Under the pieces are notes generated by a model. It was not told where the DNA came from, did not search any database, and worked only from the letters and a program-made list of their open reading frames with translations. A program made the position numbers and the translations under genes. DNA of 33,531 bases, the filler included, from Candidatus Delongbacteria bacterium (GTDB taxonomy: Bacteria > UBA4055): NCBI GenBank assembly GCA_016937995.1. It is 2 parts of 2 records of this genome, joined end to end, with 100 filler letters (N's around TTAATTAATTAA, not from the genome) between each part and the next. Parts side by side here need not be neighbours in the genome. Positions count along the whole stretch, not along the records: positions 1 to 13,822 come from JAFGVM010000049.1; 1 more part is not named here. One strand, written 5' to 3'. Positions 1 to 21,553 of this stretch are shown piece after piece. How positions within the stretch are numbered: position 1 is the stretch's first letter; every line of letters starts with the position of its first letter.

Positions 1-195
1 GCTGTTATCCAGATTTATTTTTGCTTCTGTTGTGCTGATCACCATTAGAGTATCACCAAGATTGAAAACTCTTAACCCGTCATCAGAAATTGAAAATACC
101 GGATTATTACTATTATCTTTTATCTCGAAAAGAGTTGCCGAATAAAGTGATGAAAGTACAATGATCATGGTTGCAAATACATATAATTTTTTCAT
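1..195 (-). CDS. 5' part of a fourth paralog of the secreted fibre-like protein family (runs off the window edge)
   Basis: Not in the ORF track. Manual translation from ATG at 195 gives MKKLYVFATMIIVLSSLYSATLFEIKDNSNNPVFSISDDGLRVFNLGDTLMVISTTEAKINLDNS: a signal peptide plus the N-terminal domain shared with the next three genes. Confidence 0.9.
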   Translation of the reverse strand, partial: MKKLYVFATMIIVLSSLYSATLFEIKDNSNNPVFSISDDGLRVFNLGDTLMVISTTEAKINLDNS

Positions 196-222
196 TCAGG
201 ATCCTTATCTAGTTTAACATTC

Positions 223-1794
223 TTATTTTAATGACTTTGCTGTAAGAGTTTTTAATATTCTTTCAATTTCATTAAGTTTATATTTTAAGGTTTCATTTTC
301 TTTTTTTAGTAATTCAATTTCTTTCCTGTTTATTTCGCTCTCAACATACTTTGATGCAACACAAAGCACTCCTAACGAATCAACATAAAGACTTTTCATA
401 GCATTTAATGAAGTTGTTGTATACAAATTTGGTATAACACAATTTCCTGCAACGTTAAGATTTCCGTTTATTTTAAGAGAATCGCTGTCAAACTCACCGT
501 AAATTAATGGAGATGAAGTAGTGGAATTGTCTATATATAATTTGTCAGATCCTGGCTCATTATATCCAGCCTTGTATCCTAAAAATACATTGCCTGACCC
601 GGCAGTACTGCTGTATCCGGACTGGTAACCTATGTGAGTGTTCTGAATACCTGTAACATTAGTGAAACCTGTACGATAACCTATCATTACATTTCCACCG
701 CTTGAATCCAGTACATTTCCTGCTCCGGATCCTATAAGTATACTACCTCCGCCTGTTGTATTTTTATTTCCTGCAAAAGCACCTATGAAAATATTGTTTC
801 CACCAGTTGATGTATATTCCCCTGAACGGGCACCCATCATAACATTCATAAAACCCGTAGTAAGTCCAAAACCTGAATTATACCCGAAAATACTGTTATT
901 GCTAAATGACGATCCTGTTGTTCCATATCCTGCCTGAAATCCGAATATTGTGTTATTATCTCCACCACTGTTTTGATGTCCGGCCGCAACTCCAAAATAA
1001 CTGTTGTAATCACCATCTCCATTTTCGTGCCCCGACTCATATCCATAAAATGAGTTCATGTAGCCTGTCGTACTGTTGTATCCGCTGGCTTTACCTACAA
1101 AAGTATTGTAACCACTTAAAGAGCTGTAACCCGAATGTGTGCCAACAAAAATATTATAATCGCCCGATATATTACTATATCCCGACATTCCGCCGATGAA
1201 TGTATTTAACTCTCCATCCACATTTTTCCAGCCTGATGAATTACCTATAAAAGTGTTCCTTGTACCTGTAGTATTATCAAGTCCGCTTCTGTTTCCTAAA
1301 AAAATATTGAAATATCCCGAAGTATTTGCAACTCCAGAATAATTTCCTATGAAAACATTATCAATGCCTGACTGAGGAAGAGGATCTCCTACAGTAACAT
1401 TCTGACCGGAAGACAGACCTAGAAATATATTTTCAGGACTGAAATATGAAAATCTGGGACCTTTTGCAGTGTTTGACATTGTTGCATTCTCACCTGTAAC
1501 ATCTAACGAGTGCATATGAGCATCTGTGGCTGTTACTTCTAAAGCATTTGTTCCTTTTGATGCTGAAGTAGTAACACTGAATGATCTTGACAAACCTCTG
1601 TCTTTGCTATTCGCAATGTACGCTTTTATGTCAGTCGCGGTTATTACCATTAACGTATCATCCAAATTAAAAACCCTGAGTCCGTCGTCAGAAATTGAAA
1701 ATACCGGATTATTGCTATTATCTTTTATCTCGAAAAGAGTTGTGGCATTAATTGAAAATAACATAAGTAATATTATTGGCAGTGAATTCTTCAT
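223..1794 (-). CDS. Secreted fibre/adhesin-like protein: conserved N-domain, many 14-aa N-x-F-x-G-x-x-[AS]-G repeats, C-terminal coiled coil, no S74 domain
   Basis: 523-aa ORF with a signal peptide, TLFEIKD...DDGLRVFN...KDRGLSRSFSVTTSASKG domain, Gly/Asn repeats, LYIDNS..PLIYGEFD motif and terminal heptad helix. Confidence 0.8.
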   Translation of the reverse strand: MKNSLPIILLMLFSINATTLFEIKDNSNNPVFSISDDGLRVFNLDDTLMVITATDIKAYIANSKDRGLSRSFSVTTSASKGTNALEVTATDAHMHSLDVTGENATMSNTAKGPRFSYFSPENIFLGLSSGQNVTVGDPLPQSGIDNVFIGNYSGVANTSGYFNIFLGNRSGLDNTTGTRNTFIGNSSGWKNVDGELNTFIGGMSGYSNISGDYNIFVGTHSGYSSLSGYNTFVGKASGYNSTTGYMNSFYGYESGHENGDGDYNSYFGVAAGHQNSGGDNNTIFGFQAGYGTTGSSFSNNSIFGYNSGFGLTTGFMNVMMGARSGEYTSTGGNNIFIGAFAGNKNTTGGGSILIGSGAGNVLDSSGGNVMIGYRTGFTNVTGIQNTHIGYQSGYSSTAGSGNVFLGYKAGYNEPGSDKLYIDNSTTSSPLIYGEFDSDSLKINGNLNVAGNCVIPNLYTTTSLNAMKSLYVDSLGVLCVASKYVESEINRKEIELLKKENETLKYKLNEIERILKTLTAKSLK

Positions 1795-1806
1795 ATTTTG
1801 TTCCTT

Positions 1807-3207
1807 TTATTTCTCATTCTGTATCTCTTCTATTATCCGTTCTATCTTTTTCAATCTTTCTTTCAGCTCTTCGTTTTCGTGCCTTAGTTCTTTTATCGCT
1901 TGAATCGCTATTACACTTAAACCTGCATAATCCATAGTATATATTTCACTTTCTTCATTGTACTGAACAAATTCAGGGAACAGTTTTTCGACTTCCTGAG
2001 CTATAAGTCCGGTGTGTTTAATATCTTTATCTCCCTGTGATATAAAGTTGTATCTCTTTGGCTGAAGTAACATGACCTTGTCAAGAATGTTTGCAAGATC
2101 CTCTATGTTCTTCTTAAATCTTATGTCCGAAATTGAAGAATACACACCTGTAGCATAATTAAATGTTCCCCTCTGATCCGAACCGTGAAAAAGATAGAGA
2201 TTATGTGTTGTGGAGTGGTATAAATGCCAGTCACTCGTTGCGCTGGTATTTTTTATAAACAGACCGTTATCCACTCCTGAAGGATGCCAGGCATATGTAT
2301 AATTTGAATTGAATTTCAAAGTATTAGTATCGAATTCACCATAGATCAATGGTGAAGATGTGTCTGAATTATCAATATAAAGCCTGTTTGACCCCAATTC
2401 ATTATGTCCAGAATAATATCCAATAAACACATTTCCAGAGCCAGTTTCATTCTGATATCCGGATCTTGAACCGATGTATACATTCTGATCTCCGTTACAT
2501 TGAACACCTGCAAAATAACCGAAAAGGCAACTGTTCGAACCTGAACTGTTCATTGAACCTGCATTCTGTCCAAAAAAGGAGTTATAGCTTCCATCATTAG
2601 AGTAGCCACTTGAGTAACCGAAAAAAGCGTTTTGATCACCTGTAGAAGAAAATCCGGCGGAACATCCCACATAAGTATTTGTGGCTGCTGTAGTGTTACT
2701 TTTACCTGCATCGAGCCCTATGAAAACGTTAGCACTACCGCTAATGTTTGAATATCCTGAATTTGCACCTACAAAGACATTTGACCATCCTTCAGAATCA
2801 TTAAGTCCTGCATCATTACCTACAAATACGTTCTGCATACCTTCATTTTGAGATCCAGCGTTCAAACCAAGGAAAATATTCTCCGGGCTAAAATTAGCAT
2901 ATTCACCCGAACTGCTTCCCATAGTATTTTTTTTCGAAGTTACCTCTAATGCTTTTGCCCCTTTTGAGGCAGATGTTGTTACACTGAATGATCTGGACAA
3001 TCCTCTATCTTTACTGTTACTGAGGTTCGCTTTAATTTCAGACGCACTGATCACCATAAGTGTATCACCCATATTAAACACTCTTAACCCGTCATCTGAT
3101 ATCGAAAATACAGGTTCACCACTATTATCCAGTATCTCAAAAAGTGTTTCAGCATTTAAGGTGAATAAGGTTATCAGCAAACTAAGGATTATATATGTCT
3201 TTTTCAT
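1807..3207 (-). CDS. Secreted tail-fibre-like protein with C-terminal peptidase S74 intramolecular chaperone
   Basis: ORF 1807..3228, start moved to ATG 3207 (MKKTY, GAGG upstream). Same N-domain and repeats; SDIRFKKNI...GLIAQEVEKLFPE...MDY...IQAIKEL is the S74 signature. Confidence 0.85.
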   Translation of the reverse strand: MKKTYIILSLLITLFTLNAETLFEILDNSGEPVFSISDDGLRVFNMGDTLMVISASEIKANLSNSKDRGLSRSFSVTTSASKGAKALEVTSKKNTMGSSSGEYANFSPENIFLGLNAGSQNEGMQNVFVGNDAGLNDSEGWSNVFVGANSGYSNISGSANVFIGLDAGKSNTTAATNTYVGCSAGFSSTGDQNAFFGYSSGYSNDGSYNSFFGQNAGSMNSSGSNSCLFGYFAGVQCNGDQNVYIGSRSGYQNETGSGNVFIGYYSGHNELGSNRLYIDNSDTSSPLIYGEFDTNTLKFNSNYTYAWHPSGVDNGLFIKNTSATSDWHLYHSTTHNLYLFHGSDQRGTFNYATGVYSSISDIRFKKNIEDLANILDKVMLLQPKRYNFISQGDKDIKHTGLIAQEVEKLFPEFVQYNEESEIYTMDYAGLSVIAIQAIKELRHENEELKERLKKIERIIEEIQNEK

Positions 3208-3239
3208 AATCGATCGTACCTCAAACAATTCAATTTTCT

Positions 3240-4910
3240 TTAATTTGATAATTTCGACTTAAGCATTTCTAATTTTTCAATTCTGTCATTCTGTATTTTC
3301 ATTTCTTTTTTCATTAACTCGATCTCTTCTTTTTGATCTTGAATAGCCTTGATCAAAATCGGTGTTAATTCAGAATAATTAAGCCCTAAAGTGTGTTCTT
3401 CATCTTCGCCCACATCAACAATTTCAGGTACTATCTCAAGTAATTCCTGAGCAATTAACCCAACTTTGCGTCCACGTTCAGGTTTGTCTTTCCAAAAGTA
3501 TGTAACAGGTCTCATTTTTAAGACCGTGTTTAAACCATACTCAATATCCTTAATATCAGACTTCTGTCTTTTATCCGAAGTTTGAATTACTCCATTTGTT
3601 GCGAATACATCATCCCAGCGTAATGTTGATGCACCAAGATCAAAAACATTATCCGATATTGGTCGTAGAAAACCGCTAGATAAGTAGGGAATCCCTCCAG
3701 AAGTATTATAGGATAAATACATTAAAGGCCCATAAGAGATTGCATTACCTTCTGCCCACCATTCAAGTCTGTTTAAACCTCCATCGTATTTCATTGACAT
3801 ATTATAAGTTCCGTCATTATCTTCAGCTAGAACTATTTCAGCATCATCACCACTTGTTGCTTCTGATGGGGCGATCATTAAAGAACCAAGAGTAGGACTT
3901 CCAACTACATTAAGCTCACCATTTATAGTAACAAAATCATTATCAAACTCTCCATATATCAATGGAGTCGAACTATCTGAATTTTCGATGTATAATTTAT
4001 TAGAACCTGTTTCATTACTACCTGAAGAATATCCAAGACATATATTTCCTTCACCTGCAATATTCCTACCACTATTTGCTCCGATCAACACATTGTTATT
4101 GTTATCAAATCCGGTCATATAAAGACCGCTAAAAGCACCTAAGCATACATTATCGTTGCCATATGGGCTTGTGTAACCTGATCTATGTCCAATATAAATA
4201 TTCGAATGCCCTTCAATGTTATTATATCCCGACTCTTTTCCGATCATTATGTTAGTAGTTCCAACAACATTTTCATAACCTGCAAGATTCCCAAGGAATA
4301 CATTAGCGGATCCACCCCAGTTATTTTCTCCGGACGAATTTCCTAAAAATACATTATCAATTCCACTCATACCATTAACGACATTAACTTTACCTGTGTT
4401 TAAACCCAAAAAAACATTCTCCGGGCTAAAGTCTGAATAATGTTCTCCAACCGCACCCTCTCTCATTTTCGTTTCATCAGAGTTAACTTCTAATACATCG
4501 GTCTCCAACTTCCCAGCACCTGTGGAAGTAACGTTAAATGAGTATGAAGTGTCAATGTAGGCTGTAATATTCCCGGTCGTAATGTCCATCAGATTTGTGT
4601 TATCACTATAAACTCTTAAACCGTCACCAGCTATATTTACAACATCACCCTGACCTTTAGAAGCTGAAGTTGTTACACTGAATGATCTAGATAATCCTCT
4701 ATCTTTGCTATTCTCAATAAAAGCTTTTATCTCAGATGAACTTATCACCATCAGAGTATCTCCCTGATTAAATACTCTAAGACCATCCGTGGTTACCTCA
4801 AGTACGGTGTAATTACTTTCATCTTTTATTTCAAATAGAGGTGTCGCTTTCACTTGTATAGAAAACAAGATAACGACTAAAATAAAAACAATATGTTTTT
4901 GGTATATCAT
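3240..4910 (-). CDS. Secreted tail-fibre-like protein with duplicated N-domain and C-terminal peptidase S74 chaperone
   Basis: 556-aa ORF, GAGGAGG RBS, signal peptide, repeats and TSDKRQKSDI...GLIAQEL...LNYSELTPILIKAIQD. Confidence 0.85.
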   Translation of the reverse strand: MIYQKHIVFILVVILFSIQVKATPLFEIKDESNYTVLEVTTDGLRVFNQGDTLMVISSSEIKAFIENSKDRGLSRSFSVTTSASKGQGDVVNIAGDGLRVYSDNTNLMDITTGNITAYIDTSYSFNVTSTGAGKLETDVLEVNSDETKMREGAVGEHYSDFSPENVFLGLNTGKVNVVNGMSGIDNVFLGNSSGENNWGGSANVFLGNLAGYENVVGTTNIMIGKESGYNNIEGHSNIYIGHRSGYTSPYGNDNVCLGAFSGLYMTGFDNNNNVLIGANSGRNIAGEGNICLGYSSGSNETGSNKLYIENSDSSTPLIYGEFDNDFVTINGELNVVGSPTLGSLMIAPSEATSGDDAEIVLAEDNDGTYNMSMKYDGGLNRLEWWAEGNAISYGPLMYLSYNTSGGIPYLSSGFLRPISDNVFDLGASTLRWDDVFATNGVIQTSDKRQKSDIKDIEYGLNTVLKMRPVTYFWKDKPERGRKVGLIAQELLEIVPEIVDVGEDEEHTLGLNYSELTPILIKAIQDQKEEIELMKKEMKIQNDRIEKLEMLKSKLSN

Positions 4911-4936
4911 TATGAATCCTCCTCAAAATTCAAACC

Positions 4937-4979
4937 AATATAATAATATTAATAGATAAAGTCTGTGACCTACCTCACG
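4937..4979 (-). promoter_or_regulatory. CRP-family binding site (TGTGA-cctacc-TCACG, 4964-4979) with TATATT -10 (4942-4937): class II activated promoter of the fibre array
   Basis: 9/10 match to TGTGA-N6-TCACA. The centre at 4971.5 equals -41.5 if 4942 is -12. No recognisable -35. Confidence 0.7.
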
Positions 4980-4989
4980 AAAAGGTGTG

Positions 4990-7900
4990 CTATTTCATGT
5001 TTTCCTGAATAGACTTTCCTTTTTCGATGTATTCAGCATATCCGATCTCATTTGAAATATTAACACCTTTATTGATATATTCCTCCGCTCTTTTTAATTC
5101 ACCTGTGTTTAAAAATATTTCACCAAGTTCAATTAATGCTTCCGCTATATGATGTTTTATGCCATACTTTTCTGCAATTTCCAGACCTTTGATCATTTCT
5201 GTTACTGCTTTATCGTATTTTTTCTGCAGCTTATATACATGTCCCAAATTTATAAGTGCATTGGACATTGTTGAATAATCAGACAATTCTTTACTTATTC
5301 TAAAACTCTCTTTGTGATGAGATATTGCTTTTTTAAACATTCCAAGATCCTTGTATAAAAAGCCTATGTTATTTAAACTCTGAGCAAGTTCATTTCGTTT
5401 TCCGAGTTCTTCACTCAGTTTAAGTTTCTTTTCGTAAAACTCTCTGGCTTTTTCCAGTTCACCTTTCAAATGATAAACAACTCCGATATTTCCTATTGCA
5501 CTGGCTGTTTCCATCTTAAAATTCATTTTTTCGGTTATTTCAAGTTGTTTATAATAGTTTTCAAGAGCTTTATTAAACTGCCCTGTATAATCGTAAACAA
5601 TCCCTATACTTCCAAAAAGCTTAGCACTGTTTTTATCCCGGATGTTTTTATCTATGATTTTTTCAGAGGTTTCCAGTCCAAGTTTAAAACATTCGAGAGC
5701 TTTGTCCATCTTTCCAGTTGTAAGATAATTTTTACCCAGGCTCTCATATACCAGACATAACCTATCATTGTTATTATGTTTTTCGAATATGACTTTTGCT
5801 TGTTCAAGTTCACTGTTGGATTCTTCAATTTTTCCACTGTGTGCCGATAATTGACTTAGATCTAGATTCGTAAAAGCGATCAGCATTTCGTCCTTTACTT
5901 TTTTTGCAAGGTTAACAGTAGTATTGATAATATTTTTACTTAACTCAACATTCTGAAATATACCAAAGTAGAAATAAAACCTTTGTTGATTGATTATGAT
6001 TAATTCTTTTACGATATCAATGTTGGATTTGTTTATTTTAAGATCATCCCAATCGCCTGTACTAATACCTGTTTTTTTAGATGCGTATTCTACCCACTTA
6101 TCAAAGTGTTTTACTGAAAGATCGTTCTGGTAGTCATTTTTAGCTTTAAAACCCGCTTTCTTCAGATATTCCATTGCCTTGTCAACATTTTCAGCCAGAT
6201 CATAATGATATGCAAGTATATTATAATGCGAATCTAATTTATTTTTATTTATTTCCTCAATTGCTTCTGCAGCGATTTCATGAATATCTCTGATGATTTT
6301 TCGAAGTTGCATATCATAAATTGCATCTCTGATCACGGCATACTTGAACAAATAATTTACTTCAGAAACAAGTATGAGAATATCTTCACTCTCAAGATCG
6401 GTCAGGTGCTTTCCAAGATTATCGTATTTATCTCTTAGTATGTGTGAGAGTACTTCTACAGAAAAATCGTTTCCTAATACTGATGCTGTTTTTAAAATAT
6501 CTTTAAGGTGTTGTTTAAGCTTATCTATCCTGGCTATAACTATCTTGTTTAATCCGTCAGGGATATCATCTTCATTCGTTAGTATATTCTTTTTTGTGAT
6601 CAAACGGTTATCAACCAGATAGTGTATCATCTGTTCCAAAAATAAAGGATTACTGTGACTTTTTTTCTGAAGCACTGTTAATGTTTTTTGAGGGATCCTT
6701 TTAGTTTTCAGTCTATTTTTAGTAAGCTCTTTAAAATCGGTACTATTGAGTCTTCCAAGCTTTATCCTTTTCTGACTGCTGAACCCGAAATCATATTTAT
6801 CGCCATTGTACTTGAATCTGCAATTTAGTATCATCCCGAAGGAATATTTTTTTAGTTCGTGGGATAATCTTTTAAAAAATTTCATTGAATCATTATCAAG
6901 AAATCCTGCATTGTCTATCTCAAATACCATTGTAATGTCTTGATTAAAGCATTTAAACAATGTTATCAGAGTAAGTAGGATATTGTTCTGCCTTTCATCC
7001 GGTTCTTCTGCGTAAATATCAGTATTTGTTAGTTGAAGATTCAGAAAATAACAAATATAGTCTCTATTGTTGTCGAGATCAGTCTTTGATTTATCACACT
7101 CAATTGTTTCAATCAATTGATCCAGTTTTTTATTAAACCTGAAAGTATTTCTTTCCTGGGTATCATCTTCTGCCAAATCAAAGTGTCTGTTAAAAAAGTA
7201 TTTCAAAGGATTATATGGACTTTTTATGATCTCATCGCATGAAAAATAAAACCAGTTTATTTGCTTTCCAAGCTTTTTGTATTCTAATACAGTCTCTGAT
7301 CTTACTTTGTTTGCAAGTCTTGATTTACCGATACCTGCCTCTCCATCGAGATATATTGAACCGATATATTTGTTCTTACTCAGTGGGCTAAGAAGCTTTT
7401 TAAGTCTGCTCTTTTCTTTCTCTCTACCTATAAAATCACCTTTGAAGAATATATCCTTGATCTCCGCTTTACCAGCCAGATTATATGTGGGTATCAATTT
7501 TTCAATACCTTTATATTTTAAATCCCCGATATGATCGAAAATAAAATTTTCATTCGAAATAAATTCTTTTCCAAGTAAAACTTGTTCCCAATTTGCCTGC
7601 ATCATAAATCTTGCACTTTGATTTACAGTATTACCTAGACAGGTAAACTCTTGTCTGATATCAGCACCACTGAAGCCACAATAAACTATACCTTTTGCTA
7701 AACCAGCTCTAATATGAATTTTATCTAATCTTGCTTCAGCTAACCTGAAAATAAAATTTAAAGCACGCTGGATATTATTTTCATAGGATATTGGTGCACC
7801 GAAAAACAATAGAATATTTCCACCTTTATCACCAAAATCCAAAACAGGATGAGATGCTCCGTAAGTAATTTTAAGCTCATAAAGTCTTTCCATTAATTCC

Positions 7901-8670
7901 TGCAGGTCAACATCACCCGAAAATGATATGAACACAGATATAATATCCCTGAACTCTCCTATCGGAAATTCAGCTTCAAGCTTTCCCGTTAAATGGTTAA
8001 TATCTTCTTTCTTAGCTTTTACTCTCTGGTATTTAACTTTAGTAACGGTAAATCCTTCTGTTGAGATCACTTGATAAAATTTCTCATTGTGAAGTTCCGC
8101 TTTCTTAGTTTTTACAACAACATCTTCTACAAATTTATAGAAAGAACTGTGTGCCCATATATCTCCTTTTTCTGCATTATGCTCCGCCATGGCACAAAGA
8201 TCCACAGCACTTCCGCTGAAATAGTATGTTCTCTCTGTTGAAGATCCTACAATCCCACAGGTACAATTACCAAATGACAATCCTACCTTTACACCAAACT
8301 CAAAATCCCCGAATTTGGATTTATATATTTTATTGTCTTCAAAAAATTGATTTGTTATTATCGCGGCTTTCAAAGTTCTTAATGCAGTGGTTTTCTTTAC
8401 ATCTTTAACCTCAAATATCGCAGTAAATGCATCTCCTGCATACTTTGTTACATAACCGCCATGATCATAAACAGCAGAAACAGTGGTATTAAAAAGATAC
8501 TTCAGTATGTCTGAAAGTATCTCAGCTCCTTCCTGCCCATGCTTCATTAACGCTTCAGTAGTACTTGTAAATCCTGAAATATCAACGAACATTGCAAAGC
8601 ATTCGAATTTATCTGTGAATTTATTGTCAATAAAATTTTGGACTATTCTGTCAGGTACTAAATTGTGCAT
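4990..8670 (-). CDS. Class III adenylate cyclase (soluble-AC/ADCY10-like, two cyclase domains) fused to STAND/AAA ATPase and TPR repeats
   Basis: FVDISGFT and KYAGDA (metal-binding Asp), DFGDKG and EFTCLGNTVNQSARFM (second domain), Walker A GEAGIGKS, NPLFLEQ, C-terminal TPRs (GNIGVVY, LNNIGFLY). Confidence 0.9.
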   Translation of the reverse strand: MHNLVPDRIVQNFIDNKFTDKFECFAMFVDISGFTSTTEALMKHGQEGAEILSDILKYLFNTTVSAVYDHGGYVTKYAGDAFTAIFEVKDVKKTTALRTLKAAIITNQFFEDNKIYKSKFGDFEFGVKVGLSFGNCTCGIVGSSTERTYYFSGSAVDLCAMAEHNAEKGDIWAHSSFYKFVEDVVVKTKKAELHNEKFYQVISTEGFTVTKVKYQRVKAKKEDINHLTGKLEAEFPIGEFRDIISVFISFSGDVDLQELMERLYELKITYGASHPVLDFGDKGGNILLFFGAPISYENNIQRALNFIFRLAEARLDKIHIRAGLAKGIVYCGFSGADIRQEFTCLGNTVNQSARFMMQANWEQVLLGKEFISNENFIFDHIGDLKYKGIEKLIPTYNLAGKAEIKDIFFKGDFIGREKEKSRLKKLLSPLSKNKYIGSIYLDGEAGIGKSRLANKVRSETVLEYKKLGKQINWFYFSCDEIIKSPYNPLKYFFNRHFDLAEDDTQERNTFRFNKKLDQLIETIECDKSKTDLDNNRDYICYFLNLQLTNTDIYAEEPDERQNNILLTLITLFKCFNQDITMVFEIDNAGFLDNDSMKFFKRLSHELKKYSFGMILNCRFKYNGDKYDFGFSSQKRIKLGRLNSTDFKELTKNRLKTKRIPQKTLTVLQKKSHSNPLFLEQMIHYLVDNRLITKKNILTNEDDIPDGLNKIVIARIDKLKQHLKDILKTASVLGNDFSVEVLSHILRDKYDNLGKHLTDLESEDILILVSEVNYLFKYAVIRDAIYDMQLRKIIRDIHEIAAEAIEEINKNKLDSHYNILAYHYDLAENVDKAMEYLKKAGFKAKNDYQNDLSVKHFDKWVEYASKKTGISTGDWDDLKINKSNIDIVKELIIINQQRFYFYFGIFQNVELSKNIINTTVNLAKKVKDEMLIAFTNLDLSQLSAHSGKIEESNSELEQAKVIFEKHNNNDRLCLVYESLGKNYLTTGKMDKALECFKLGLETSEKIIDKNIRDKNSAKLFGSIGIVYDYTGQFNKALENYYKQLEITEKMNFKMETASAIGNIGVVYHLKGELEKAREFYEKKLKLSEELGKRNELAQSLNNIGFLYKDLGMFKKAISHHKESFRISKELSDYSTMSNALINLGHVYKLQKKYDKAVTEMIKGLEIAEKYGIKHHIAEALIELGEIFLNTGELKRAEEYINKGVNISNEIGYAEYIEKGKSIQENMK

Positions 8671-8877
8671 TTACAACTCCGGAATAAAATATTTATTCAA
8701 CACTGGACGCTTTCTGTCAGTATAGGAAGTGAATTAAATTGAAATACCAACATAAGACCACAGTACTTATATCAAGATTAATAATATAACGCACATGATA
8801 CAAATAATAAATAAAAATAAAAAAAATATATTTGTGTTCGGGGACGGCAGATCATTTTGAACTAAGATCTATTAAAT

Positions 8878-9240
8878 TTAATGAAAATCCAACCCGCCTA
8901 TCAATTTTCTCAAAACTACTAAAAATTCTTCATAATTATCGGGAAATTCTCCAGACCCATAAGTATGAAGTTTTAATTTACCTACTTTAATATTCACACT
9001 CCAATTCTGCCCGTCTGATGTACTTTTATCAACATATGATCTGTTCCATAGCCATATCTTAAGATTAACCGTTTCTTTCCAGAATTTATCCCAGTCATCA
9101 TCTGATGGATCTCTTACAAGTTTTTCCTCAGGTCTTGTTGCATGATAGATAAGTTTATTATCCCTGAGTAGTATTGTGAAAGATCTTCCGTAAAAAGAAC
9201 TTAAAGTGATCCTCATTTCTTCAGGTGTTGATGAGTGCAT
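8878..9240 (-). CDS. Hypothetical protein (Trp-rich, 120 aa)
   Basis: Clean ORF with globular composition and its own sigma70-type promoter upstream. Confidence 0.7.
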   Translation of the reverse strand: MHSSTPEEMRITLSSFYGRSFTILLRDNKLIYHATRPEEKLVRDPSDDDWDKFWKETVNLKIWLWNRSYVDKSTSDGQNWSVNIKVGKLKLHTYGSGEFPDNYEEFLVVLRKLIGGLDFH

Positions 9241-9280
9241 ATTAAAAACCGTATCTTAGTTATTGCTTATTTGATCAGTA

Positions 9281-9309
9281 AATTTGCTTTATAGCTTACA
9301 AAATGTCAA
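9281..9309 (-). promoter_or_regulatory. sigma70-type promoter TTGACA-N17-CAAATT
   Basis: Perfect -35 at 9309-9304 and 17-bp spacer. The CAAATT -10 also occurs upstream of pstS and the porin. Confidence 0.5.
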
Positions 9310-9491
9310 GAATAGAAAAATTAAAGTTTCGGTTTTCGTTGTTACGGTGTTATATTTATATTCCATTTAAGGCAAATAATGTAAGATAATTGTTGTGGAA
9401 GTACGGCTTTAAATTTACTTTTTTATCAAATGTGTGATTTTTAAAATAAAATCGCTTAAATTTCGTTTACTATAGAAAAATGGAGTTTATA

Positions 9492-10172
9492 ATGACCAGA
9501 TACTATTTTATCGTCTTGATGATCTTATTGCTTGGAGTGACTTACACAGTAAGAGCAGAAAGTGGGGATGATATAAAACATTTTGGAAGTGATACCGATC
9601 AAATGCTATTAGCAGAAAATAACTTAGATGATATTACAGCTATGCCAGATGATGACAGGGATTTTGAATTTGATCCTCCCGGTGAAAAAAGGTTCGAGCA
9701 TGGGAAAAAAGGTAGAGGTATGCGCGATAAAAACATATCTCCTGAGCTTGAAACGAAGATCAGTAACACTTTGAAAGAACATTTTCCAGAACTTTATAAC
9801 AAATCTCTCGATCTGAAAAAAAATCATCCGTTGATATATCGAAAACTTTTGAAAAAACTGAGAAAACACATCAGAAGAACAAAAGAACCTAAGGAAGAAA
9901 AGAAAAATTTGATCGCAATGATCTTCGAAGAATCAGAAGTGGATATTTTAATTCAAAAATTCAAGAACACTGAAAACGAGAAAGAAAAAGCAGAATTAAA
10001 AGATATCATCAGGAAAAAATTATCAGACGGATTTGACAAGAGAGAAAATATCGAAAAAAAGGTTATTAATAGAATTGAAAAGAACATTGAAAAGAAAAAG
10101 AAAAATCACGATGAACGAATAAAGAACAAAGAAAAATTAATTAATGAACATCTAGAAAAACTGTTGAAATAA
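9492..10172 (+). CDS. Exported, highly charged alpha-helical hypothetical protein
   Basis: ORF 9480..10172, likely start ATG 9492 after GGAG. Signal peptide ending VRA; K/E-rich helices. Confidence 0.75.
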   Translation: MTRYYFIVLMILLLGVTYTVRAESGDDIKHFGSDTDQMLLAENNLDDITAMPDDDRDFEFDPPGEKRFEHGKKGRGMRDKNISPELETKISNTLKEHFPELYNKSLDLKKNHPLIYRKLLKKLRKHIRRTKEPKEEKKNLIAMIFEESEVDILIQKFKNTENEKEKAELKDIIRKKLSDGFDKRENIEKKVINRIEKNIEKKKKNHDERIKNKEKLINEHLEKLLK

Positions 10173-10176
10173 ATCA

Positions 10177-10878
10177 ATGATAAAAGTAACTGACCTATCA
10201 TTTTCTATCTCCGGTAAAGAAATTTTAAATAATGTAAATTTTTCTGTTGATGATAATACCTCATTAATAATTTCAGGTCCAAGCGGTGCAGGAAAGACCA
10301 AACTGCTTGAGATCATAAGCGGTTTTGAAAGAAGTTATACCGGCAAGGTATCAATCGGAGGATCTCCTTTGGAAAATCTTGGAGATGATCTTTACGACAT
10401 GATTAGCTACGTCAGTAATTCCTGGCTAGAAAATACTCTGTCCGAAAAAGTGATGAGCGATCTTGTATTTCCTTTGGAGTTAAAAAATCTACCCGAACAT
10501 GTGATAAAAGAAAAACTGGATCGGATTATAAGTGTTTTTAATCTAGAAGATCTTATCGATGTTCCACCAATGAATTTATCAGGTGGAGAAAAACAATTTG
10601 TAAATATTTGCACTATGATAATAAAAGAACCTAAGATCCTAATGATCGATGATCAAATGACCATGATCGACAGAGGAAAAAGGGAGATAATATTCAAAGA
10701 AATAATCCGTTCAAAGAAACACACCGCTGTAGTGATCTCTAAAGATACCAATATCTACTCTGAGTTCGATAAGATACTTTTTCTGGACAAGGGAAGTGTT
10801 TACTATTTCGGTGATACGGTGACTTTTAACAAAGAACACCGTTCCAAGTTAATAGATACCGGATTGATCGAAAAATAA
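10177..10878 (+). CDS. ABC ATPase, ECF (CbiO/EcfA)-like, with degenerate catalytic motifs
   Basis: Walker A GPSGAGKT, LSGGEKQ signature, V.SDLVFPLE motif of ECF ATPases. Walker B reads MIDDQ and the H-loop reads ISKD. Confidence 0.8.
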   Translation: MIKVTDLSFSISGKEILNNVNFSVDDNTSLIISGPSGAGKTKLLEIISGFERSYTGKVSIGGSPLENLGDDLYDMISYVSNSWLENTLSEKVMSDLVFPLELKNLPEHVIKEKLDRIISVFNLEDLIDVPPMNLSGGEKQFVNICTMIIKEPKILMIDDQMTMIDRGKREIIFKEIIRSKKHTAVVISKDTNIYSEFDKILFLDKGSVYYFGDTVTFNKEHRSKLIDTGLIEK

Positions 10879-10921
10879 TTCCCATATCGCTGTTTTAATC
10901 AAAACATCATAAAAAAACATC

Positions 10922-10950
10922 TTGATTTAGTTCATAAAAAACTTTAATAT
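10922..10950 (+). promoter_or_regulatory. sigma70-type promoter of the oxidoreductase operon (TTGATT-N17-TAATAT)
   Basis: Consensus-like hexamers with 17-bp spacing, 55 bp upstream of the ferredoxin start. Confidence 0.45.
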
Positions 10951-11005
10951 CAATTTCTTGATAGCAAGGTTTAATTAAAAATATAATAAAAATTTTGGAG
11001 GAAAC

Positions 11006-11227
11006 ATGGAGATTAAAGGGTACATTGAAGTGGATATTCAAAAATGTAAAGGATGTCAGCTTTGCGCGACCGTTTGTCCAAAGGCTGTTATCGGCTATTC
11101 CGATAAAACAAATGACAAGGGATATTATTACGCAATTATGGTTAACGAAGATTGTATCGGTTGTGGAAATTGTGCAATAGTGTGTCCGGATAGTGTGATC
11201 ACTGCCTATAGAGCAGCAAAAAAATAA
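11006..11227 (+). CDS. 2x[4Fe-4S] ferredoxin, delta subunit of 2-oxoacid:ferredoxin oxidoreductase
   Basis: Two CxxCxxCxxxCP motifs; GGAGG RBS; first gene of the operon. Confidence 0.93.
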   Translation: MEIKGYIEVDIQKCKGCQLCATVCPKAVIGYSDKTNDKGYYYAIMVNEDCIGCGNCAIVCPDSVITAYRAAKK

Positions 11228-11257
11228 TTATTTAATAAAATAGATTGGAGGTCAAAA

Positions 11258-12319
11258 TTGGCTGAAAAGTATTTAATGAAGGGTAATGAGGCTCTTGCTG
11301 AAGCGGCTATCAGAGCAGGCATTGATGGTTATTTCGGTTATCCTATAACTCCTCAAAGTGAAGTATTGGAATACTTCTCAAAATGGCTACCAAGAAAAGG
11401 TATTGCCTATGTTCAGGCAGAAAGTGAAGTTTCTGCGATAAATATGGTTTATGGTGCAGGTGCCTGTGGTAAAAGGGTTATGACCAGTACATCTTCTCCT
11501 GGATTTTCATTAATGCAGGAAGGTGTTTCTTACATAGCTTGTGCTCAGATACCATGTGTTCTTGTAAATGTTCAGAGAGGCGGTCCCGGTCTTGGAACAA
11601 TTCAACCTTCACAGGGTGATTATTTTCAAGCAGTGAAAGGTGGAGGTCACGGAGATTACAGACTTATCGTTCTGACTCCTAACTCAGTTCAGGAACAGGC
11701 TGATATGGTATATAAAGCATTCGATCTTTCCGAGAAATATCTTAACCCTGTTCTGATTTTGTCTGACGGTGCTTTGGGACAGATGATGGAAACAGTGGAA
11801 TTTAAGGAAGATTATGTAAGACCTGAATTTGATGACAGCTGGGCAACTACTGGAAAAATGACAAATAGAGGAATGAATACCATTACTTCTCTATATATTA
11901 AACCTGAGGATATGGAAAAGAAGAACTTCGAACTACAGGCAAAATACAAGATCATTGAAGAGAATGAAGTCGATTATGAACTTTGTCACATGGATGACGC
12001 TGAGATCGGATATATTGCTTACGGTCTATCTTCAAGAATAGTAAAAAAAGCTGTTGATATAGCAAGAGAACAGGGAATCAAAGTCGGCCTTATCAGACCA
12101 AAGACTGTATGGCCTTTCCCTAAAGATGTTATCAAAAAATACTCTGAGCAGGTAAAAGCTTATTTATCTATTGAGATGAGCGTTGGACAGATGATCGAAG
12201 ATGTAAAGCTTGCAATAGATTGCAAGATACCTGTTGAACATTATGGTAAGACAGGTGGTATCGTTCTTTCAACAGAAGAGATCATTGAAAAAACAAAAGA
12301 TATGTTAAACAAATATTAA
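11258..12319 (+). CDS. vorB: 2-oxoacid (3-methyl-2-oxobutanoate-type):ferredoxin oxidoreductase alpha subunit
   Basis: MKGNEALAEAA, GYPITPQSE, QAESEVSAINMVYGA, TSTSSPGFSL, GGGHGDY; TTG start with GGAGG. Confidence 0.9.
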   Translation: MAEKYLMKGNEALAEAAIRAGIDGYFGYPITPQSEVLEYFSKWLPRKGIAYVQAESEVSAINMVYGAGACGKRVMTSTSSPGFSLMQEGVSYIACAQIPCVLVNVQRGGPGLGTIQPSQGDYFQAVKGGGHGDYRLIVLTPNSVQEQADMVYKAFDLSEKYLNPVLILSDGALGQMMETVEFKEDYVRPEFDDSWATTGKMTNRGMNTITSLYIKPEDMEKKNFELQAKYKIIEENEVDYELCHMDDAEIGYIAYGLSSRIVKKAVDIAREQGIKVGLIRPKTVWPFPKDVIKKYSEQVKAYLSIEMSVGQMIEDVKLAIDCKIPVEHYGKTGGIVLSTEEIIEKTKDMLNKY

Positions 12320-12335
12320 ACAGGAGCAGTTAACT

Positions 12336-13112
12336 ATGGCTGAAACAATTACTAAGAACGGTCAGGAATTTGATGTAGTTTGGAAAAAACCAAACCTTCA
12401 GAAAAATGACATGCATTACTGCCCGGGTTGTGCTCATGGTACTCTTGAAAAGCTTCTTCAGGAAGTAATCGATGAAAAAGGTATTCAACATCAGATCATC
12501 GGAGTATCACCTGTGGGTTGTGCAGTATTTGCTTATGATTATATGAACTGTGATATGCAGGAAGCAGCTCACGGTAGAGCATGTGCTCTGGCTACTGGGA
12601 TTAAAAGAGTTATGCCGGAACATGCAGTATTTACAATTCAGGGTGACGGAGATCTTGCTTCTATTGGTCTGGCTGAAACTCTTCATGCATGTAACAGGGG
12701 TGAAAGCATTATAATTCTTTTCTATAACAACGCAATTTACGGTATGACAGGCGGACAGATGGCACCTACAACTTTACCTGGACAGATCACTTCTTCTTCA
12801 CCTGACGGTAGGGACCCGAAGCTTTCAGGAATGCCTTTAAAAGTTGCGAATATCGTAAAAGAATTTGACGGCACCTGCTATGTAACAAGACAGGCTGCTA
12901 ATAATGCTGTTAACGCAAGAAAACTTAAAAAAGCTATTGAAAAAGCTGTTGATAACTCTCTGAACAACAGAGGAACATCTTTCATAGAGCTTGTTGGAAA
13001 CTGTCCATCCGGATGGAAATTGACACCTGTTGAATCCTACAAATGGTGGGAGGAGAACATGTTGAAATATTATCCGCTTGGTGACCTAAAAACTGAAGGA
13101 GGGATAAAATAA
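12336..13112 (+). CDS. 2-oxoacid:ferredoxin oxidoreductase beta (TPP-binding) subunit
   Basis: YCPGCAHG, PVGC, HGRA, QGDGDL...NNAIYGMTGGQ. Confidence 0.93.
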   Translation: MAETITKNGQEFDVVWKKPNLQKNDMHYCPGCAHGTLEKLLQEVIDEKGIQHQIIGVSPVGCAVFAYDYMNCDMQEAAHGRACALATGIKRVMPEHAVFTIQGDGDLASIGLAETLHACNRGESIIILFYNNAIYGMTGGQMAPTTLPGQITSSSPDGRDPKLSGMPLKVANIVKEFDGTCYVTRQAANNAVNARKLKKAIEKAVDNSLNNRGTSFIELVGNCPSGWKLTPVESYKWWEENMLKYYPLGDLKTEGGIK

Positions 13113-13663
13113 TGTTACAGGAAGTTATGTTTTCAGGATTTGGTGGACAGGGTGTTCTTACTATCGCAAAGAATTTATCTTACACAGCGATGCTGGAAGG
13201 TAAAGAGACATGCTGGATGCCAACTTACGGACCTGAGATGAGAGGTGGAACTTGTGGTTGTACTGTTTCTGTTAGTGATAAACCTGTAAGTTCTCCTATA
13301 TTAGAAAAATATACTACAGTAGTAGCTTTGAACCAGCCTTCACTTGACAAGTATCAACCAAAAGTGAAGGAAGGTGGACTGTTGATATGGGAATCTACTA
13401 ATATTCATAAAGCACCGACCAGAACGGATATTAATATAGTTCCTATTCCTGCTTACGAAGAATCAAACAAACTTGGAAATCCACTGATGATGGGTATGAT
13501 CCTTCTTGGAGCTTACATTCAAAAGACAGGTGCGATCACTATTGAGGGTGTTATCGATGCACTTAAGAAGACTTTACCTGAAAGAAGGCATGATCTTATT
13601 CCTCTGAATGAGCAAGCGCTCAAAAGAGGATTTGAACTGGCTGAAGCGATCAAATGCTGCTAA
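13112..13663 (+). CDS. 2-oxoacid:ferredoxin oxidoreductase gamma subunit
   Basis: GFGGQGV and YGPEMRGG; TAATG stop/start overlap. Confidence 0.93.
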   Translation: MLQEVMFSGFGGQGVLTIAKNLSYTAMLEGKETCWMPTYGPEMRGGTCGCTVSVSDKPVSSPILEKYTTVVALNQPSLDKYQPKVKEGGLLIWESTNIHKAPTRTDINIVPIPAYEESNKLGNPLMMGMILLGAYIQKTGAITIEGVIDALKKTLPERRHDLIPLNEQALKRGFELAEAIKCC

Positions 13664-13678
13664 GATTCATTAAATTCT

Positions 13679-13706
13679 AAACGGGACTGAATGTCCCGTT
13701 TTTTTT
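13679..13706 (+). terminator. Rho-independent terminator
   Basis: AAACGGGAC-tgaat-GTCCCGTTT followed by a T run. Confidence 0.85.
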
Positions 13707-13741
13707 GCTTCAAAAAATTAAATCGTATTTAATTATATTAT

Positions 13742-13822
13742 TTACATTAGTGACATTTGTCCCCTGAGAAGTAACCAAGTGTTACGCGGTAGTAAATATT
13801 TCTTCATTTTATCACTTCCGGA
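13742..13822 (-). CDS. Possible 3' end of a gene truncated by the contig end (SGSDKMKKYLLPRNTWLLLRGQMSLM*)
   Basis: Open frame from the gap to TAA at 13744-13742, converging on the terminator. Only 26 codons are visible. Confidence 0.35.
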   Translation of the reverse strand, partial: SGSDKMKKYLLPRNTWLLLRGQMSLM

Positions 13823-17537: not shown

Positions 17538-18407
17538 CTACCAATCGCGATTTTTTCTGATCCTATATCTAAAATAAACCGACGCAGAACTCACTATTAT
17601 TACAAATGCAAGCAGAACAAGTGCAGTTCCGTAAGCGATCGGAACCTGCTTATCAGGATGAGATCCTTCTGTCATCAGTGCATAAATATGATATGGTAGA
17701 GCCATGACCTCATCAGAAAGTGAATTAGGAAGCCTTCTGCTGTAGAACGTTGCTGCAGTAAACAATATAGGAGCAGTTTCTCCTGCGACCCTTCCGATTG
17801 CAAGTATTACTCCCGTCAGAATATTCGGTAAAGCTGCAGGTAAAAGCACCTTAAGAATAGTCTGTCTTTCTGATGCACCGAGCGAAAGTGAAGCATCTCT
17901 GAACTCTGGAGGGATTGTTTTAAGGGCTTCTTCTGTATTATTTATAATAATTGGTAGTATCAGAACAGCAAGTGTCAGAGATCCACTGATAATTGATACA
18001 TCAAACTCAAAATATATAACAAATACTGCCATTCCGAACAGACCGTAAATGATTGATGGAATAGCTGCAAGTGTACTTATAGTAACCCTGAGTGATTTTA
18101 CAAACCAGTAAGGTCTTGCATAACTTGTAAGATATACTGCTGTAAATACTCCGAATGGCAATGCTATCAGTACCGAAATAAGTGTAAGCCAGAGTGTTCC
18201 TACAATTGCAGGGAATATACCACCTTCTGTCATGAACTTTCTCGGCATCTCAGATACAAATTCCCAGGATATAACTCCGTAACCTTTTGATACAATTATA
18301 TATATGAAAATGAAAAGAAAAATACCCGTAGTAAAAGTAAGCAGATTAAGTGTTGATACACCCAGGAACTGCTTTAATGATCTCATATTAATAGTTTTAA
18401 GACTCAT
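17538..18407 (-). CDS. pstA: Phosphate ABC transporter permease PstA
   Basis: GGIFPAIVGT, LAAIPSIIYGLFG, GRVAGETAP. Confidence 0.95.
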   Translation of the reverse strand: MSLKTINMRSLKQFLGVSTLNLLTFTTGIFLFIFIYIIVSKGYGVISWEFVSEMPRKFMTEGGIFPAIVGTLWLTLISVLIALPFGVFTAVYLTSYARPYWFVKSLRVTISTLAAIPSIIYGLFGMAVFVIYFEFDVSIISGSLTLAVLILPIIINNTEEALKTIPPEFRDASLSLGASERQTILKVLLPAALPNILTGVILAIGRVAGETAPILFTAATFYSRRLPNSLSDEVMALPYHIYALMTEGSHPDKQVPIAYGTALVLLAFVIIVSSASVYFRYRIRKNRDW

Positions 18408-19273
18408 ATTTTTTTCTTCCTGAAGAATACAAGTTCAGTTATAATATTACTGAAGAAAGTTATAAAAAATAATATTATCGCTATAGCAAACAGAGAACTG
18501 TAATGATCACTGCCGACCACTGTCTCACCCATTTCTGCTGCGATAGCTGCTGTCATAGGTCTTACCGGTGAAAATATACTTTTCGGTATCTGAGCTGATC
18601 CTCCTGCCACCATAAGAACTACCAGGGTTTCACCTATCGCTCTACCAAATGCAAGAATAAACGATCCGATAATACCGCTTTTTGCTGCCGGGATAATGAC
18701 CTTGTATATCGTTTCGAATTTATTTGCTCCTAAACTCAATGATGCATCTCTTAGATTTTGCGGTACGGCATTCAAGGCATCTTCGCTCATTGTTGATATT
18801 ATTGGAATAACCATAATACCGAGTATTAATGATGCAGAGAACATATTCAGACCTATCGGTGCTCCAAAAGTATCCATTACAAATGGAGAAAGAAAGACTA
18901 TACCTACCAATCCATAAATAACAGATGGAATTCCGGCAAGAAGTTCAATGATCGGTTTAATAATTTCTTTTGTTCTTCTTCCTGCCAGTTCAGAGATATA
19001 GATCGCAGAACCCAGTCCTAAAGGAATAGCCACAACAAGTGTACCAATCGTTACGTAGATAGAAGATACTATCAGAGTCCACATTCCAAAAATAGGCGGA
19101 TCATCAACAGGTCTCCATTCCATACCGAATAAAGTGGAAAAGATACCGACCTTTTTTAAGATCGGTATCCCTTCAGTGAATATACTCAGGATTATTCCTA
19201 CAAGTGCTGCGATAGTAAAAAAAGCTGCACCGTATGTTATACCTGAAAATAGTTTATCATAGAATTTTTTCAT
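18404..19273 (-). CDS. pstC: Phosphate ABC transporter permease PstC
   Basis: KPIIELLAGIPSVIYG, SEDAL, GRAIGET. Confidence 0.95.
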   Translation of the reverse strand: MKKFYDKLFSGITYGAAFFTIAALVGIILSIFTEGIPILKKVGIFSTLFGMEWRPVDDPPIFGMWTLIVSSIYVTIGTLVVAIPLGLGSAIYISELAGRRTKEIIKPIIELLAGIPSVIYGLVGIVFLSPFVMDTFGAPIGLNMFSASLILGIMVIPIISTMSEDALNAVPQNLRDASLSLGANKFETIYKVIIPAAKSGIIGSFILAFGRAIGETLVVLMVAGGSAQIPKSIFSPVRPMTAAIAAEMGETVVGSDHYSSLFAIAIILFFITFFSNIITELVFFRKKKI

Positions 19274-19277
19274 TGGA

Positions 19278-20087
19278 TTATTTACTTACTTTTACAAATC
19301 CCATTTCTTCTACAATTGCCTGTCCCTTAGGTGAAAGAACGAAATCAATATACTTTTTTACTTTACCTTCCGGCTTACCTTTTGTGTACATGTGAAGTGT
19401 CCTTGCGATAGGATAAGTTCTATCCTGGATAGTTTTTTCTGATACTGTTATTCCGTTGATCCTTACATCATTAACATTATCGGAAAGGTAACCTATACCT
19501 ACATAACCAACTGCACCTTTTGTATCTTTTACAGTAGTTGCTACTGCATTATTTGAAGCAAGCATGAGTGAACTAGCTGCCAGCTTTTCCTTCTTAAGGA
19601 CTTTTGTCTCGAAGGTTTCATAAGTACCTGAAGAAACGTCTCTTGATACAAGAACTATAGGCATAGAAGGTCCGCCTACTTCTTTCCAGTTCATTATCTC
19701 ACCTGTATAGATCTTCTGAAGCTGATCGATTGTAAGATCTTTTACCGGATTTGATTTGTGAACTATAACAGCTATACCATCATTAGCTACTACATTCTCA
19801 TAAGCTTCTACACCATTCTGTTTAGCTTGAAGAAGTTCTTTGTTCTTGATGTGCCTTGAAGCATTACCTATGTCACAAGTTCCTGCTATAATTCCTGCTA
19901 CACCAACACCTGATCCACCACCTCTTACTGAGATATTCATGTCAGGATTCATTTCCATGAAAGCTTCAGCAGTTGCCTGAGCTATAGGAAGTACAGTTGT
20001 TGAACCGACCATTGTGATCTGATCACCTTTCTTAGCGAAAGCAACCATTGCTGCGATCATCATGATTACGAATAATAATTTTTTCAT
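19278..20087 (-). CDS. pstS: Phosphate ABC transporter substrate-binding protein PstS
   Basis: GSTTVLP, GGGSGVG, DIGNASR, R...SGT, YPIARTL; signal peptide. Confidence 0.95.
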   Translation of the reverse strand: MKKLLFVIMMIAAMVAFAKKGDQITMVGSTTVLPIAQATAEAFMEMNPDMNISVRGGGSGVGVAGIIAGTCDIGNASRHIKNKELLQAKQNGVEAYENVVANDGIAVIVHKSNPVKDLTIDQLQKIYTGEIMNWKEVGGPSMPIVLVSRDVSSGTYETFETKVLKKEKLAASSLMLASNNAVATTVKDTKGAVGYVGIGYLSDNVNDVRINGITVSEKTIQDRTYPIARTLHMYTKGKPEGKVKKYIDFVLSPKGQAIVEEMGFVKVSK

Positions 20088-20141
20088 TTTTTACTCCTAA
20101 TAAGTGTTTTGTTCTTTAACGTGTGTAATTTGCTATTTTAA

Positions 20142-20180
20142 TGTTTGAGAAATAATAAGGATTTGTTAGAATTGTATTAG
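20142..20180 (-). promoter_or_regulatory. Pho-box-like array upstream of pstS
   Basis: TGTTTG(20142), TAATAA(20153), TGTTAG(20164), TATTAG(20175) at an 11-bp period; CAAATT -10 lies 9 bp downstream on the - strand. Confidence 0.75.
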
Positions 20181-20185
20181 AAATA

Positions 20186-20265
20186 GGGTCTTGAGATGTG
20201 GGTCTCGGGTCTCGGGTTGCAAATCCAATCATAACCCAAGACTCAAGACTCGAGACTCACAACCG
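20186..20265. repeat. Inverted heptamer-repeat hairpin (GGGTCTC-like x5 / AAGACTC-like x5)
   Basis: GGGTCTT GAGATGT GGGTCTC GGGTCTC GGGTTGC, 10-nt spacer, ATAACCC AAGACTC AAGACTC GAGACTC ACAACCG. Confidence 0.75.
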
Positions 20266-20267
20266 TT

Positions 20268-21326: not shown

Positions 21327-21381
21327 ACTATCCTCCATTTGAGTGTTTAATTTTGTTTACGTGTGAAATTTGCTATATGAA

Positions 21382-21420: not shown

Positions 21421-21458
21421 AATTTAGAAGTCAGAGGATAGAAGTAAAAATATTCCAC

Positions 21459-21547: not shown

Positions 21548-21553
21548 ACGCAG

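Follow-up and report, generated by a model that had tools for sequence, protein, structure and literature searches.

What switches on the array of secreted fibre genes that follows a class III cyclase gene in Candidatus Delongbacteria bacterium, and does the cyclase supply the signal? The locus belongs to a 33,531-nucleotide (nt) stretch of assembly GCA_016937995.1, made of two joined parts with filler between them (positions 1 to 13,822 are from JAFGVM010000049.1); the whole stretch is called the window here. A co-directional set of minus-strand genes fills positions 1-9240 and consists of an open reading frame (ORF) of 120 amino acids (aa), the cyclase gene and the fibre genes. A preliminary description of this DNA had proposed that the cyclase makes cyclic AMP (cAMP), which switches on the fibre genes through a class II CRP site in the 79-nt gap after the cyclase. 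Our analysis leads to a related reading, to which we give a probability of about 0.6: the gap is a Crp-family class II promoter, its regulator is switched by a cyclic nucleotide, and the adjacent cyclase is a candidate source of that nucleotide. The promoter part of the earlier idea is well supported and highly probable.

In the proposed mechanism, the 79-nt gap would act as a Crp-family-dependent class II promoter for an operon that comprises four or more genes for Sec-secreted fibres. Its regulator, a dimeric Crp-type protein with its gene at another place in the genome, would bind nGTGn-N6-TCACA in place of a -35 element and recruit RNA polymerase to a TATATT hexamer 21 nt downstream. The regulator would most likely be switched by a cyclic nucleotide from class III cyclases, and the upstream cyclase, which resembles soluble adenylyl cyclase (sAC) and has a C1-C2-STAND-TPR layout, is a candidate that may be hard-wired to the fibre array. 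The fibres would belong to a small regulon of cell-surface and secreted proteins, since the same box design also heads other secreted-protein genes. We infer the binding, activation as opposed to repression, the identity of the nucleotide, and the link from cyclase to regulator.

The argument begins with the gap itself, which runs from the cyclase stop codon (TAG, ending at 4990) to the ATG of fibre gene 1 at 4910. Its features are:

4964..4979, minus strand: Crp-type box CGTGA-GGTAGG-TCACA, centre 4971.5, matching 9 of 10 consensus positions; the plus strand reads TGTGACCTACCTCACG
4937..4942, minus strand: -10-like hexamer TATATT, beginning after 21 nt from the box
4930, minus strand: predicted transcription start, placed from the position of the -10-like hexamer
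4918..4924, minus strand: Shine-Dalgarno sequence GAGGAGG

Read along the minus strand, the order is TAG-cacacctttt-CGTGA-GGTAGG-TCACA-(21 nt)-TATATT-(12 nt)-GAGGAGG-(7 nt)-ATG. The box centre, hexamer (4942-4937) and gap length of the preliminary description are the same in our re-reading. Because exactly 21 nt separate box and hexamer and the start is predicted 7 nt past the hexamer, near 4930, the centre of the box falls at -41.5. The palindromic site is thus of the TGTGA-N6-TCACA type and, relative to the predicted -10, stands in the -35 position, as in class II promoters of the CRP/FNR type. The gap's one -35-like match, GTCACA, coincides with the right half of the box, so that the earlier placement of the box at -41.5 with no separate -35 element holds for the predicted start. 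In PMC10187061, a distance of 22 bp from the site to position two of the -10 element is described as exclusive to class II promoters, and the box-to-hexamer distance seen here agrees with this spacing. The RNA fold of the gap is unremarkable (z -0.91).

Two other assignments for the same letters were considered and set aside. TCACA as a -35 hexamer was rejected on two grounds: the hexamer that the loci conserve stands at 20-21 nt and not at 16-18 nt, and conservation extends to the left half-site as well. A sigma-54 reading of TGGTCTGCG, made by eye, was dropped as its TGG is lost in loci L003, L004, L008 and L010.

If the box is a working operator it should outlast the divergence of the surrounding genes. 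Species-representative genomes were scanned with an alignment of 17 cyclase sequences, which returned 11 orthologous loci, in Delongbacteria metagenome-assembled genomes and with 49-72% identity, plus one unrelated weak match. Nine of the 11 reach beyond the cyclase stop (L001 and L006 end within the gene). In all nine a fibre array begins about 30-115 nt after the cyclase, and in all nine nGTGn-N6-TCACA, a run of T and a TATATT-like hexamer at 20-21 nt come after the stop codon or overlap it; in L010 the hexamer at 21 nt is TAAATT, with TATATT at 16 nt. In metagenomes, a single cyclase protein as query found nothing, while the alignment query succeeded and gave 11 loci, five of them with downstream DNA (L112 duplicates L011, and two share an identical spacer). 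The layout of cyclase, box, T-run, hexamer and fibre array is the same in these five. GTG-N8-CACA is therefore present in 14/14 readable orthologous loci, nine from genomes and five from metagenomes. Both the class II geometry and the cyclase-box-fibre order that the preliminary description had proposed to look for in relatives are kept in every one of them.

The conservation is concentrated on the box. The box halves have a mean pairwise identity of 0.84, while the 21-nt spacer reaches 0.45 and the 18 nt after it 0.31, and in any single intergenic region the composite motif arises in at most 8 of 20000 shuffles. These figures support selection acting on the box, as judged from the aligned sequences.

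Several of our observations weigh against the proposed reading, and each is given with the alternative that it favours. The simplest alternative is that the gap holds no regulatory site at all: the palindrome would be a chance match or a part of the 3' end of the cyclase gene, and the fibres would be expressed by read-through or from a plain promoter. The statistics of the window are weak in just this way. TGTGA-N6-TCAC has one match in the window against 0.20 expected, with at least one match in 13 of 100 shuffles, and a relaxed search allowing up to two mismatches gives 17 matches against 19.7 expected, which is no enrichment. The stop codon of the cyclase gene and the left half-site share letters in seven of the nine genome loci (..AAATAG|TG..); there the half-site is weak (AGTGG, 3/5), and there coding constraint could in principle account for its conservation. 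A terminator scan between the cyclase and fibre gene 1 found none, so that transcriptional read-through is possible. The box is nevertheless judged real on its conservation across loci; it is not significant from the window alone. In the window, L005 and L110 it stands clear of the stop codon and yet GTG-N8-CAC is retained, which speaks against this alternative, as do the contrast in identity between the box halves and their flanks (0.84 vs 0.31-0.45), the shuffle counts per locus, and the recurrence of the box-hexamer design across the genome. We regard the absence of any site as highly improbable and already disfavoured.

The genome-wide recurrence was examined in five related genomes (G001-G005), in which all 59 unique box sites were fetched. 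Counted on both strands, GTGA-N6-TCACA occurs 79 times compared with 27 for a reversed control pattern. Of the unique sites, 26 lie outside long ORFs and 33 are covered by ORFs. Among the 26, TAnnnT stands exactly 21 nt after the box in 19, in a single orientation, while at every other offset from 5 to 44 it is found at 0-6 sites. Among the 33 ORF-covered sites the hexamer is at 21 in only two (L043 and L050), both of which are really intergenic. The 19 sites form roughly eight orthologous groups and so are not 19 independent events.

The genes behind these boxes are as follows. A giant secreted protein (more than 998 aa, with beta-helix-like repeats and no Pfam family) is divergent from gltX, and its palindrome is a perfect TGTGA-N6-TCACA in all five genomes (L033-L037; for example 10131-10146 in L037), with TAnnnT 21 nt after the box in four of them and at 20 nt in the fifth. 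A perfect box, N21, and TACAAT or TATTTT come before GLUG-motif proteins of 1063-1354 aa at the following places:

L038, 9116-9131: box before a GLUG-motif protein
L099, 68-83: box before a GLUG-motif protein
L100, 7837-7852: box before a GLUG-motif protein

In L038 and L099 further S74-type fibres come after the GLUG protein, making a second kind of fibre cluster with a box at its head, and in G004 a unit of GLUG protein and fibres comes directly after the cyclase-linked array. Boxes also precede a Peptidase_C10 protease with an Inhibitor_I69 prodomain, a PAS protein and the small ORF that lies upstream of an rsgA-like gene, and an FG-GAP protein (L109) is preceded by a box with the hexamer at offset 20.

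One further box is placed differently and brings in a second alternative, in which the bound regulator would repress by occupying the -35 region of a weak sigma-70 promoter, GTCACA-N18-TATTAT. Before a nuoE-like gene (coding for a subunit of a hydrogenase or NADH dehydrogenase), a canonical TTGACA-N17-TATTTT promoter has the box downstream of it, and this box is conserved in five genomes (L105 3349-3364; L106 4066-4081). This repressor-like position suggests repression at that gene, and it follows that the regulator need not always activate; the promoter also indicates that ordinary -35/-10 promoters are in use in these organisms. The promoter scan of the gap does find GTCACA-N18-TATTAT, with 9/12 matches. 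Its hexamer, at 17-18 nt, has no conserved counterpart in the orthologues, which keep the hexamer at 20-21 nt, and the sharp peak at offset 21 over unrelated promoters fits the geometry of activation. Repression of the fibre array is therefore improbable to us.

The proposed activator would have its gene elsewhere. As the preliminary description had stated, no Crp-family gene is found among the window ORFs scanned against Pfam, and the regulator is known from the genomes of relatives, of which 30 were searched and nine aligned. Two Crp/Fnr-family genes are present in each of G001-G005. One encodes a 232-aa protein with a RETLSR-type helix, which was found, at 63-100% identity, in 12 of the 30 relatives; among them is the window's closest relative, G012, whose version is 65% identical to the G001 protein. 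The motifs FGEMSLLD..RNANA and TGISRETLSRI are invariant in the nine aligned genomes. Among proteins of solved structure, this one is best matched by M. tuberculosis CRP (8e-29) and GlxR, and by E. coli CAP and Vfr (about 1e-17). Its top NCBIfam model is CRP at 107.2 bits, which is below the 266-bit equivalog cut-off.

The DNA-recognition helix of this protein fits the box. According to PMC10187061, R180 and R185 of the CAP helix RETVGR bond G2 and G4 of TGTGA, E181 contacts the partner of G4, and the conserved residues of the F-helix are the first, second and last. The F-helix pattern R-E-x-x-x-R/K of CAP/CRP proteins is seen as RETLSR in all nine genomes, and the GTG conserved in the left half-site here is the part contacted by the CAP helix residues. 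The search for a Crp-family regulator that had been suggested for this locus thus yields a trans-acting protein with a CAP-type R-E-x-x-x-R helix in related genomes. The second Crp/Fnr paralogue (L013-L017, 231-233 aa) was considered and is a poorer candidate for TGTGA. Its helix reads TTIETAIR, which we take to be FNR-like, and it has neither the Gly-Glu/Arg cassette nor an FNR-type N-terminal Cys cluster.

Whether the neighbouring cyclase could supply the ligand depends on its catalytic core. The gene and its domains are:

4990..8670, minus strand: class III cyclase, 1226 aa, from Pfam matches and its structural relative
8107..8595, minus strand: C1 catalytic domain, aa 26-188, with metal Asp residues D30 and D80, and K76
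7597..7881, minus strand: C2 catalytic domain core, aa 264-358, aligned to 4clf 323-420, with T343, N350 and R354
6853..7434, minus strand: AAA_16, a STAND-type P-loop NTPase, aa 413-606 (Pfam E 2.1e-8)
5062..5664, minus strand: C-terminal TPR array, aa ~1003-1203 (TPR_12 7e-34, TPR_MalT 1e-12)

The Pfam matches are two stretches of Guanylate_cyc, then AAA_16, TPR_12 and TPR_MalT, in agreement with the earlier description of a cyclase with STAND and TPR modules and with the STAND-with-TPR layout, in which a P-loop NTPase domain precedes a TPR array. Residues 1-410 have human sAC as their best solved relative (4clf, E 3e-26), with both C1 and C2 matched. In C1, D30, D80 and K76 align to sAC D47, D99 and K95, and in C2, T343, N350 and R354 align to sAC T405, N412 and R416; all six are invariant in the 17 orthologues. 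A metal Asp pair in C1 with Asn and Arg in C2 is the tandem class III arrangement, and the catalytic core is intact at the level of sequence. The metal, transition-state and purine-binding roles of these residues are those that we assume from sAC.

The strongest alternative accepts the Crp-family site and looks for its signal in some other place than the adjacent cyclase. The ligand would come from other cyclases, or would be cyclic GMP (cGMP), another ligand or none, and the adjacency would result from co-transcription, for which the lack of a terminator leaves room, or from the STAND-TPR part acting on the fibres or their export. Each related genome has 5-10 Guanylate_cyc matches, about 4-6 cyclase genes after grouping by ORF, and boxed fibre clusters with no nearby cyclase exist (L038, L099). 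In PMC10187061, the characterised cAMP- or cGMP-binding members are invariably E(X)nRS or E(X)nRT. The phosphate-binding cassette of the Delongbacteria regulator has the Glu and the Arg followed by Asn in all nine genomes. The cyclase does not have the purine-specifying Lys (sAC K334): P275 stands there with H274 adjacent, both invariant, and a one-residue alignment gap nearby leaves the register uncertain by one, so that the product cannot be assigned as cAMP or cGMP. The RETLSR regulator was not found in G005 or G008, both possibly incomplete genomes. Among the 30 relatives, one clade holds the cyclase orthologue together with the fibre family and the regulator; as this is a single lineage, confounded by shared ancestry, it is not independent support.

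Set against this alternative are the adjacency of cyclase, box and fibres in all readable loci down to 49% protein identity, the invariance of the catalytic metal and transition-state residues, and the regulator cassette, which retains Gly-Glu and Arg. The invariant adjacency argues for the link from cyclase to regulator; the several cyclases per genome, the boxed fibres without a cyclase, the R-N cassette and the missing Lys call for caution about it. On balance, a signal whose source is not the adjacent cyclase seems rather unlikely to us, and the chain from this cyclase through cAMP to the regulator is plausible. A cyclic nucleotide probably controls the surface coat of these bacteria, to judge from their genes and promoters.

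The class II promoter reading can be taken one step further, and here we are tentative. Possibly there is a dedicated cyclic-nucleotide/Crp regulon whose main output is the interaction surface of the cell, with the sAC-type STAND-TPR cyclase, held next to the main fibre promoter, as the sensor of the array, so that a cue received through the TPR and NTPase modules would switch the coat on. That surface might consist of hypervariable, phage-tail-like S74 fibres with one anchor domain, the GLUG and beta-helix giants, and the C10 protease.

The fibre genes that such a promoter would serve are, in the order of transcription:

3240..4910, minus strand: fibre gene 1, 556 aa, with signal peptide, shared N-terminal domain, Gly/Asn-rich repeats and a C-terminal Peptidase_S74 domain (nt 3417-3578)
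1807..3207, minus strand: fibre gene 2, 466 aa from the ATG at 3207 (466 aa also in its database form), with Peptidase_S74 at nt 1966-2130
223..1794, minus strand: fibre gene 3, 523 aa, with the shared N-terminal domain, no S74 domain and a coiled-coil C-terminus
1..194, minus strand: fourth fibre gene, with its ATG at 194, a signal peptide and then the TLFEIKD...DGLRVFN domain, running off the end of the window

The fibre 2 ORF spans 3228..1807, and the ATG at 3207 is its most likely start. Successive fibre genes are separated by 11, 12 and 28 nt, so they look like a single operon. All of the fibres have in common an N-terminus with a signal peptide and then the domain TLFEIKD...DGLRVFN...SKDRGLSRSFSVTTSASKG. 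Fibres 1 and 2 each have a C-terminal PF13884 domain (Peptidase_S74, E about 1e-15), and S-D-x-R-x-K, presumably the S74 self-cleavage site, is visible at the start of the domain. The earlier description of the locus as an array of secreted S74 fibres hence stands for the signal peptides and for fibres 1 and 2, and fails for fibre 3, which has no S74 domain. The chromosomal arrays of such fibres hold from 3 to 10 or more genes, with no phage genes around. The shared N-terminal domain is present in 10-14 copies per genome, spread over several arrays (G001, G004, G006, G011, G012), and some members of the family end in H_lectin (PF09458) in place of S74. In its sequences, the family pattern is one of a common anchor and exchangeable tips.

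Upstream of the cyclase, on the same strand, lies one more gene:

8878..9240, minus strand: 120-aa protein of no known family

Pfam and NCBIfam scans of this protein gave no match, and its AlphaFold model (predicted local distance difference test, pLDDT, 49) is unusable. It is kept directly upstream of the cyclase in L001, L003, L009, L010 and L011 with 55-82% identity, and it may form one operon with the cyclase. Divergent from these two genes, at 9480-10172 on the plus strand, is a 230-aa protein with a signal peptide, an extremely Lys/Glu-rich composition and no family match. The remaining genes of the window are housekeeping genes: a 2-oxoacid:ferredoxin oxidoreductase, a pst-phoU-phoRB set, ABC transporters and a deformylase. 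The phosphate-uptake set is complete (17538-25523, minus strand), with a pstS-like binding protein, two permeases, an ATPase and PhoU, and is accompanied by a PAS histidine kinase and an OmpR-type response regulator.

Among the papers listed by a full-text search for the phylum, none deals with gene regulation in Delongbacteria, judged by titles and the openings of abstracts. Searches on sAC/STAND/TPR and AC/AAA/TPR proteins and on Peptidase_S74 adhesins, which covered the articles themselves, found no description of this system. The locus offers a sequence-level regulatory circuit for an uncultured phylum, with a defined operator and a fixed spacing rule, and with candidates for both the regulator and the signal enzyme, and its parts can be tested in E. 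coli or in vitro, so that culture of the organism is unnecessary. It suggests that S74 fibres of the phage type serve as chromosomal, Sec-exported and co-regulated surface arrays, and it adds a bacterial protein, related to full-length soluble adenylyl cyclase, for which the likely output is known. If the dedicated regulon proves true, this would be a bacterial forerunner of sAC signalling with a readable pair of input and output.

How does the locus compare with known systems? The E. coli CAP class II promoters are alike in that a 16-bp TGTGA-N6-TCACA palindrome replaces the -35 element, with 21 nt to the -10 hexamer and 22 to its second position (PMC10187061). The regulator also has the helix pattern R-E-x-x-x-R of E. 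coli CAP. Unlike CAP, it scores 107 bits against a cut-off of 266 and has an R-N cassette and a T-D/A-D C-helix; it belongs to an uncultured phylum, is known here from sequence, and would act on secreted and surface proteins, not on catabolic genes. SYCRP1 of Synechocystis is similar in being a cAMP receptor protein with a TGTGA-N6-TCACA-like motif that governs motility and surface structures (PMC10187061; PMC2633013; bioRxiv 10.1101/130278). Instead of type IV pilins, the targets in Delongbacteria comprise S74-type fibres, GLUG proteins and a C10 protease, and the cyclase gene is physically joined to the promoter region of the target operon, which sets them apart from SYCRP1. Vfr of Pseudomonas is a further parallel for cyclic-nucleotide control of surface structures.

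The cyclase shares with human sAC (ADCY10, 4clf) a C1-C2 pseudo-heterodimer in which C1 holds the two metal Asp residues and C2 the Thr, Asn and Arg, and full-length sAC also carries a P-loop/TPR-like tail. It differs in having Pro/His at the position of K334 and an Ala aligned to sAC R176, which we take to be the bicarbonate-binding Arg, and in being a bacterial enzyme whose gene adjoins its putative target operon. Fibres 1 and 2 resemble phage endosialidases and tail fibres in their intramolecular chaperone domain, the C-terminal PF13884; unlike the phage fibres they have Sec signal peptides, a shared N-terminal domain, and a place in chromosomal arrays without phage genes nearby. By their sequences, the components of the system all belong with known families. 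The novelty lies in the phylum, in a target set of Sec-exported S74 fibre arrays and other giant secreted proteins, and in the fixed fusion of an sAC-like STAND-TPR cyclase gene to the target promoter.

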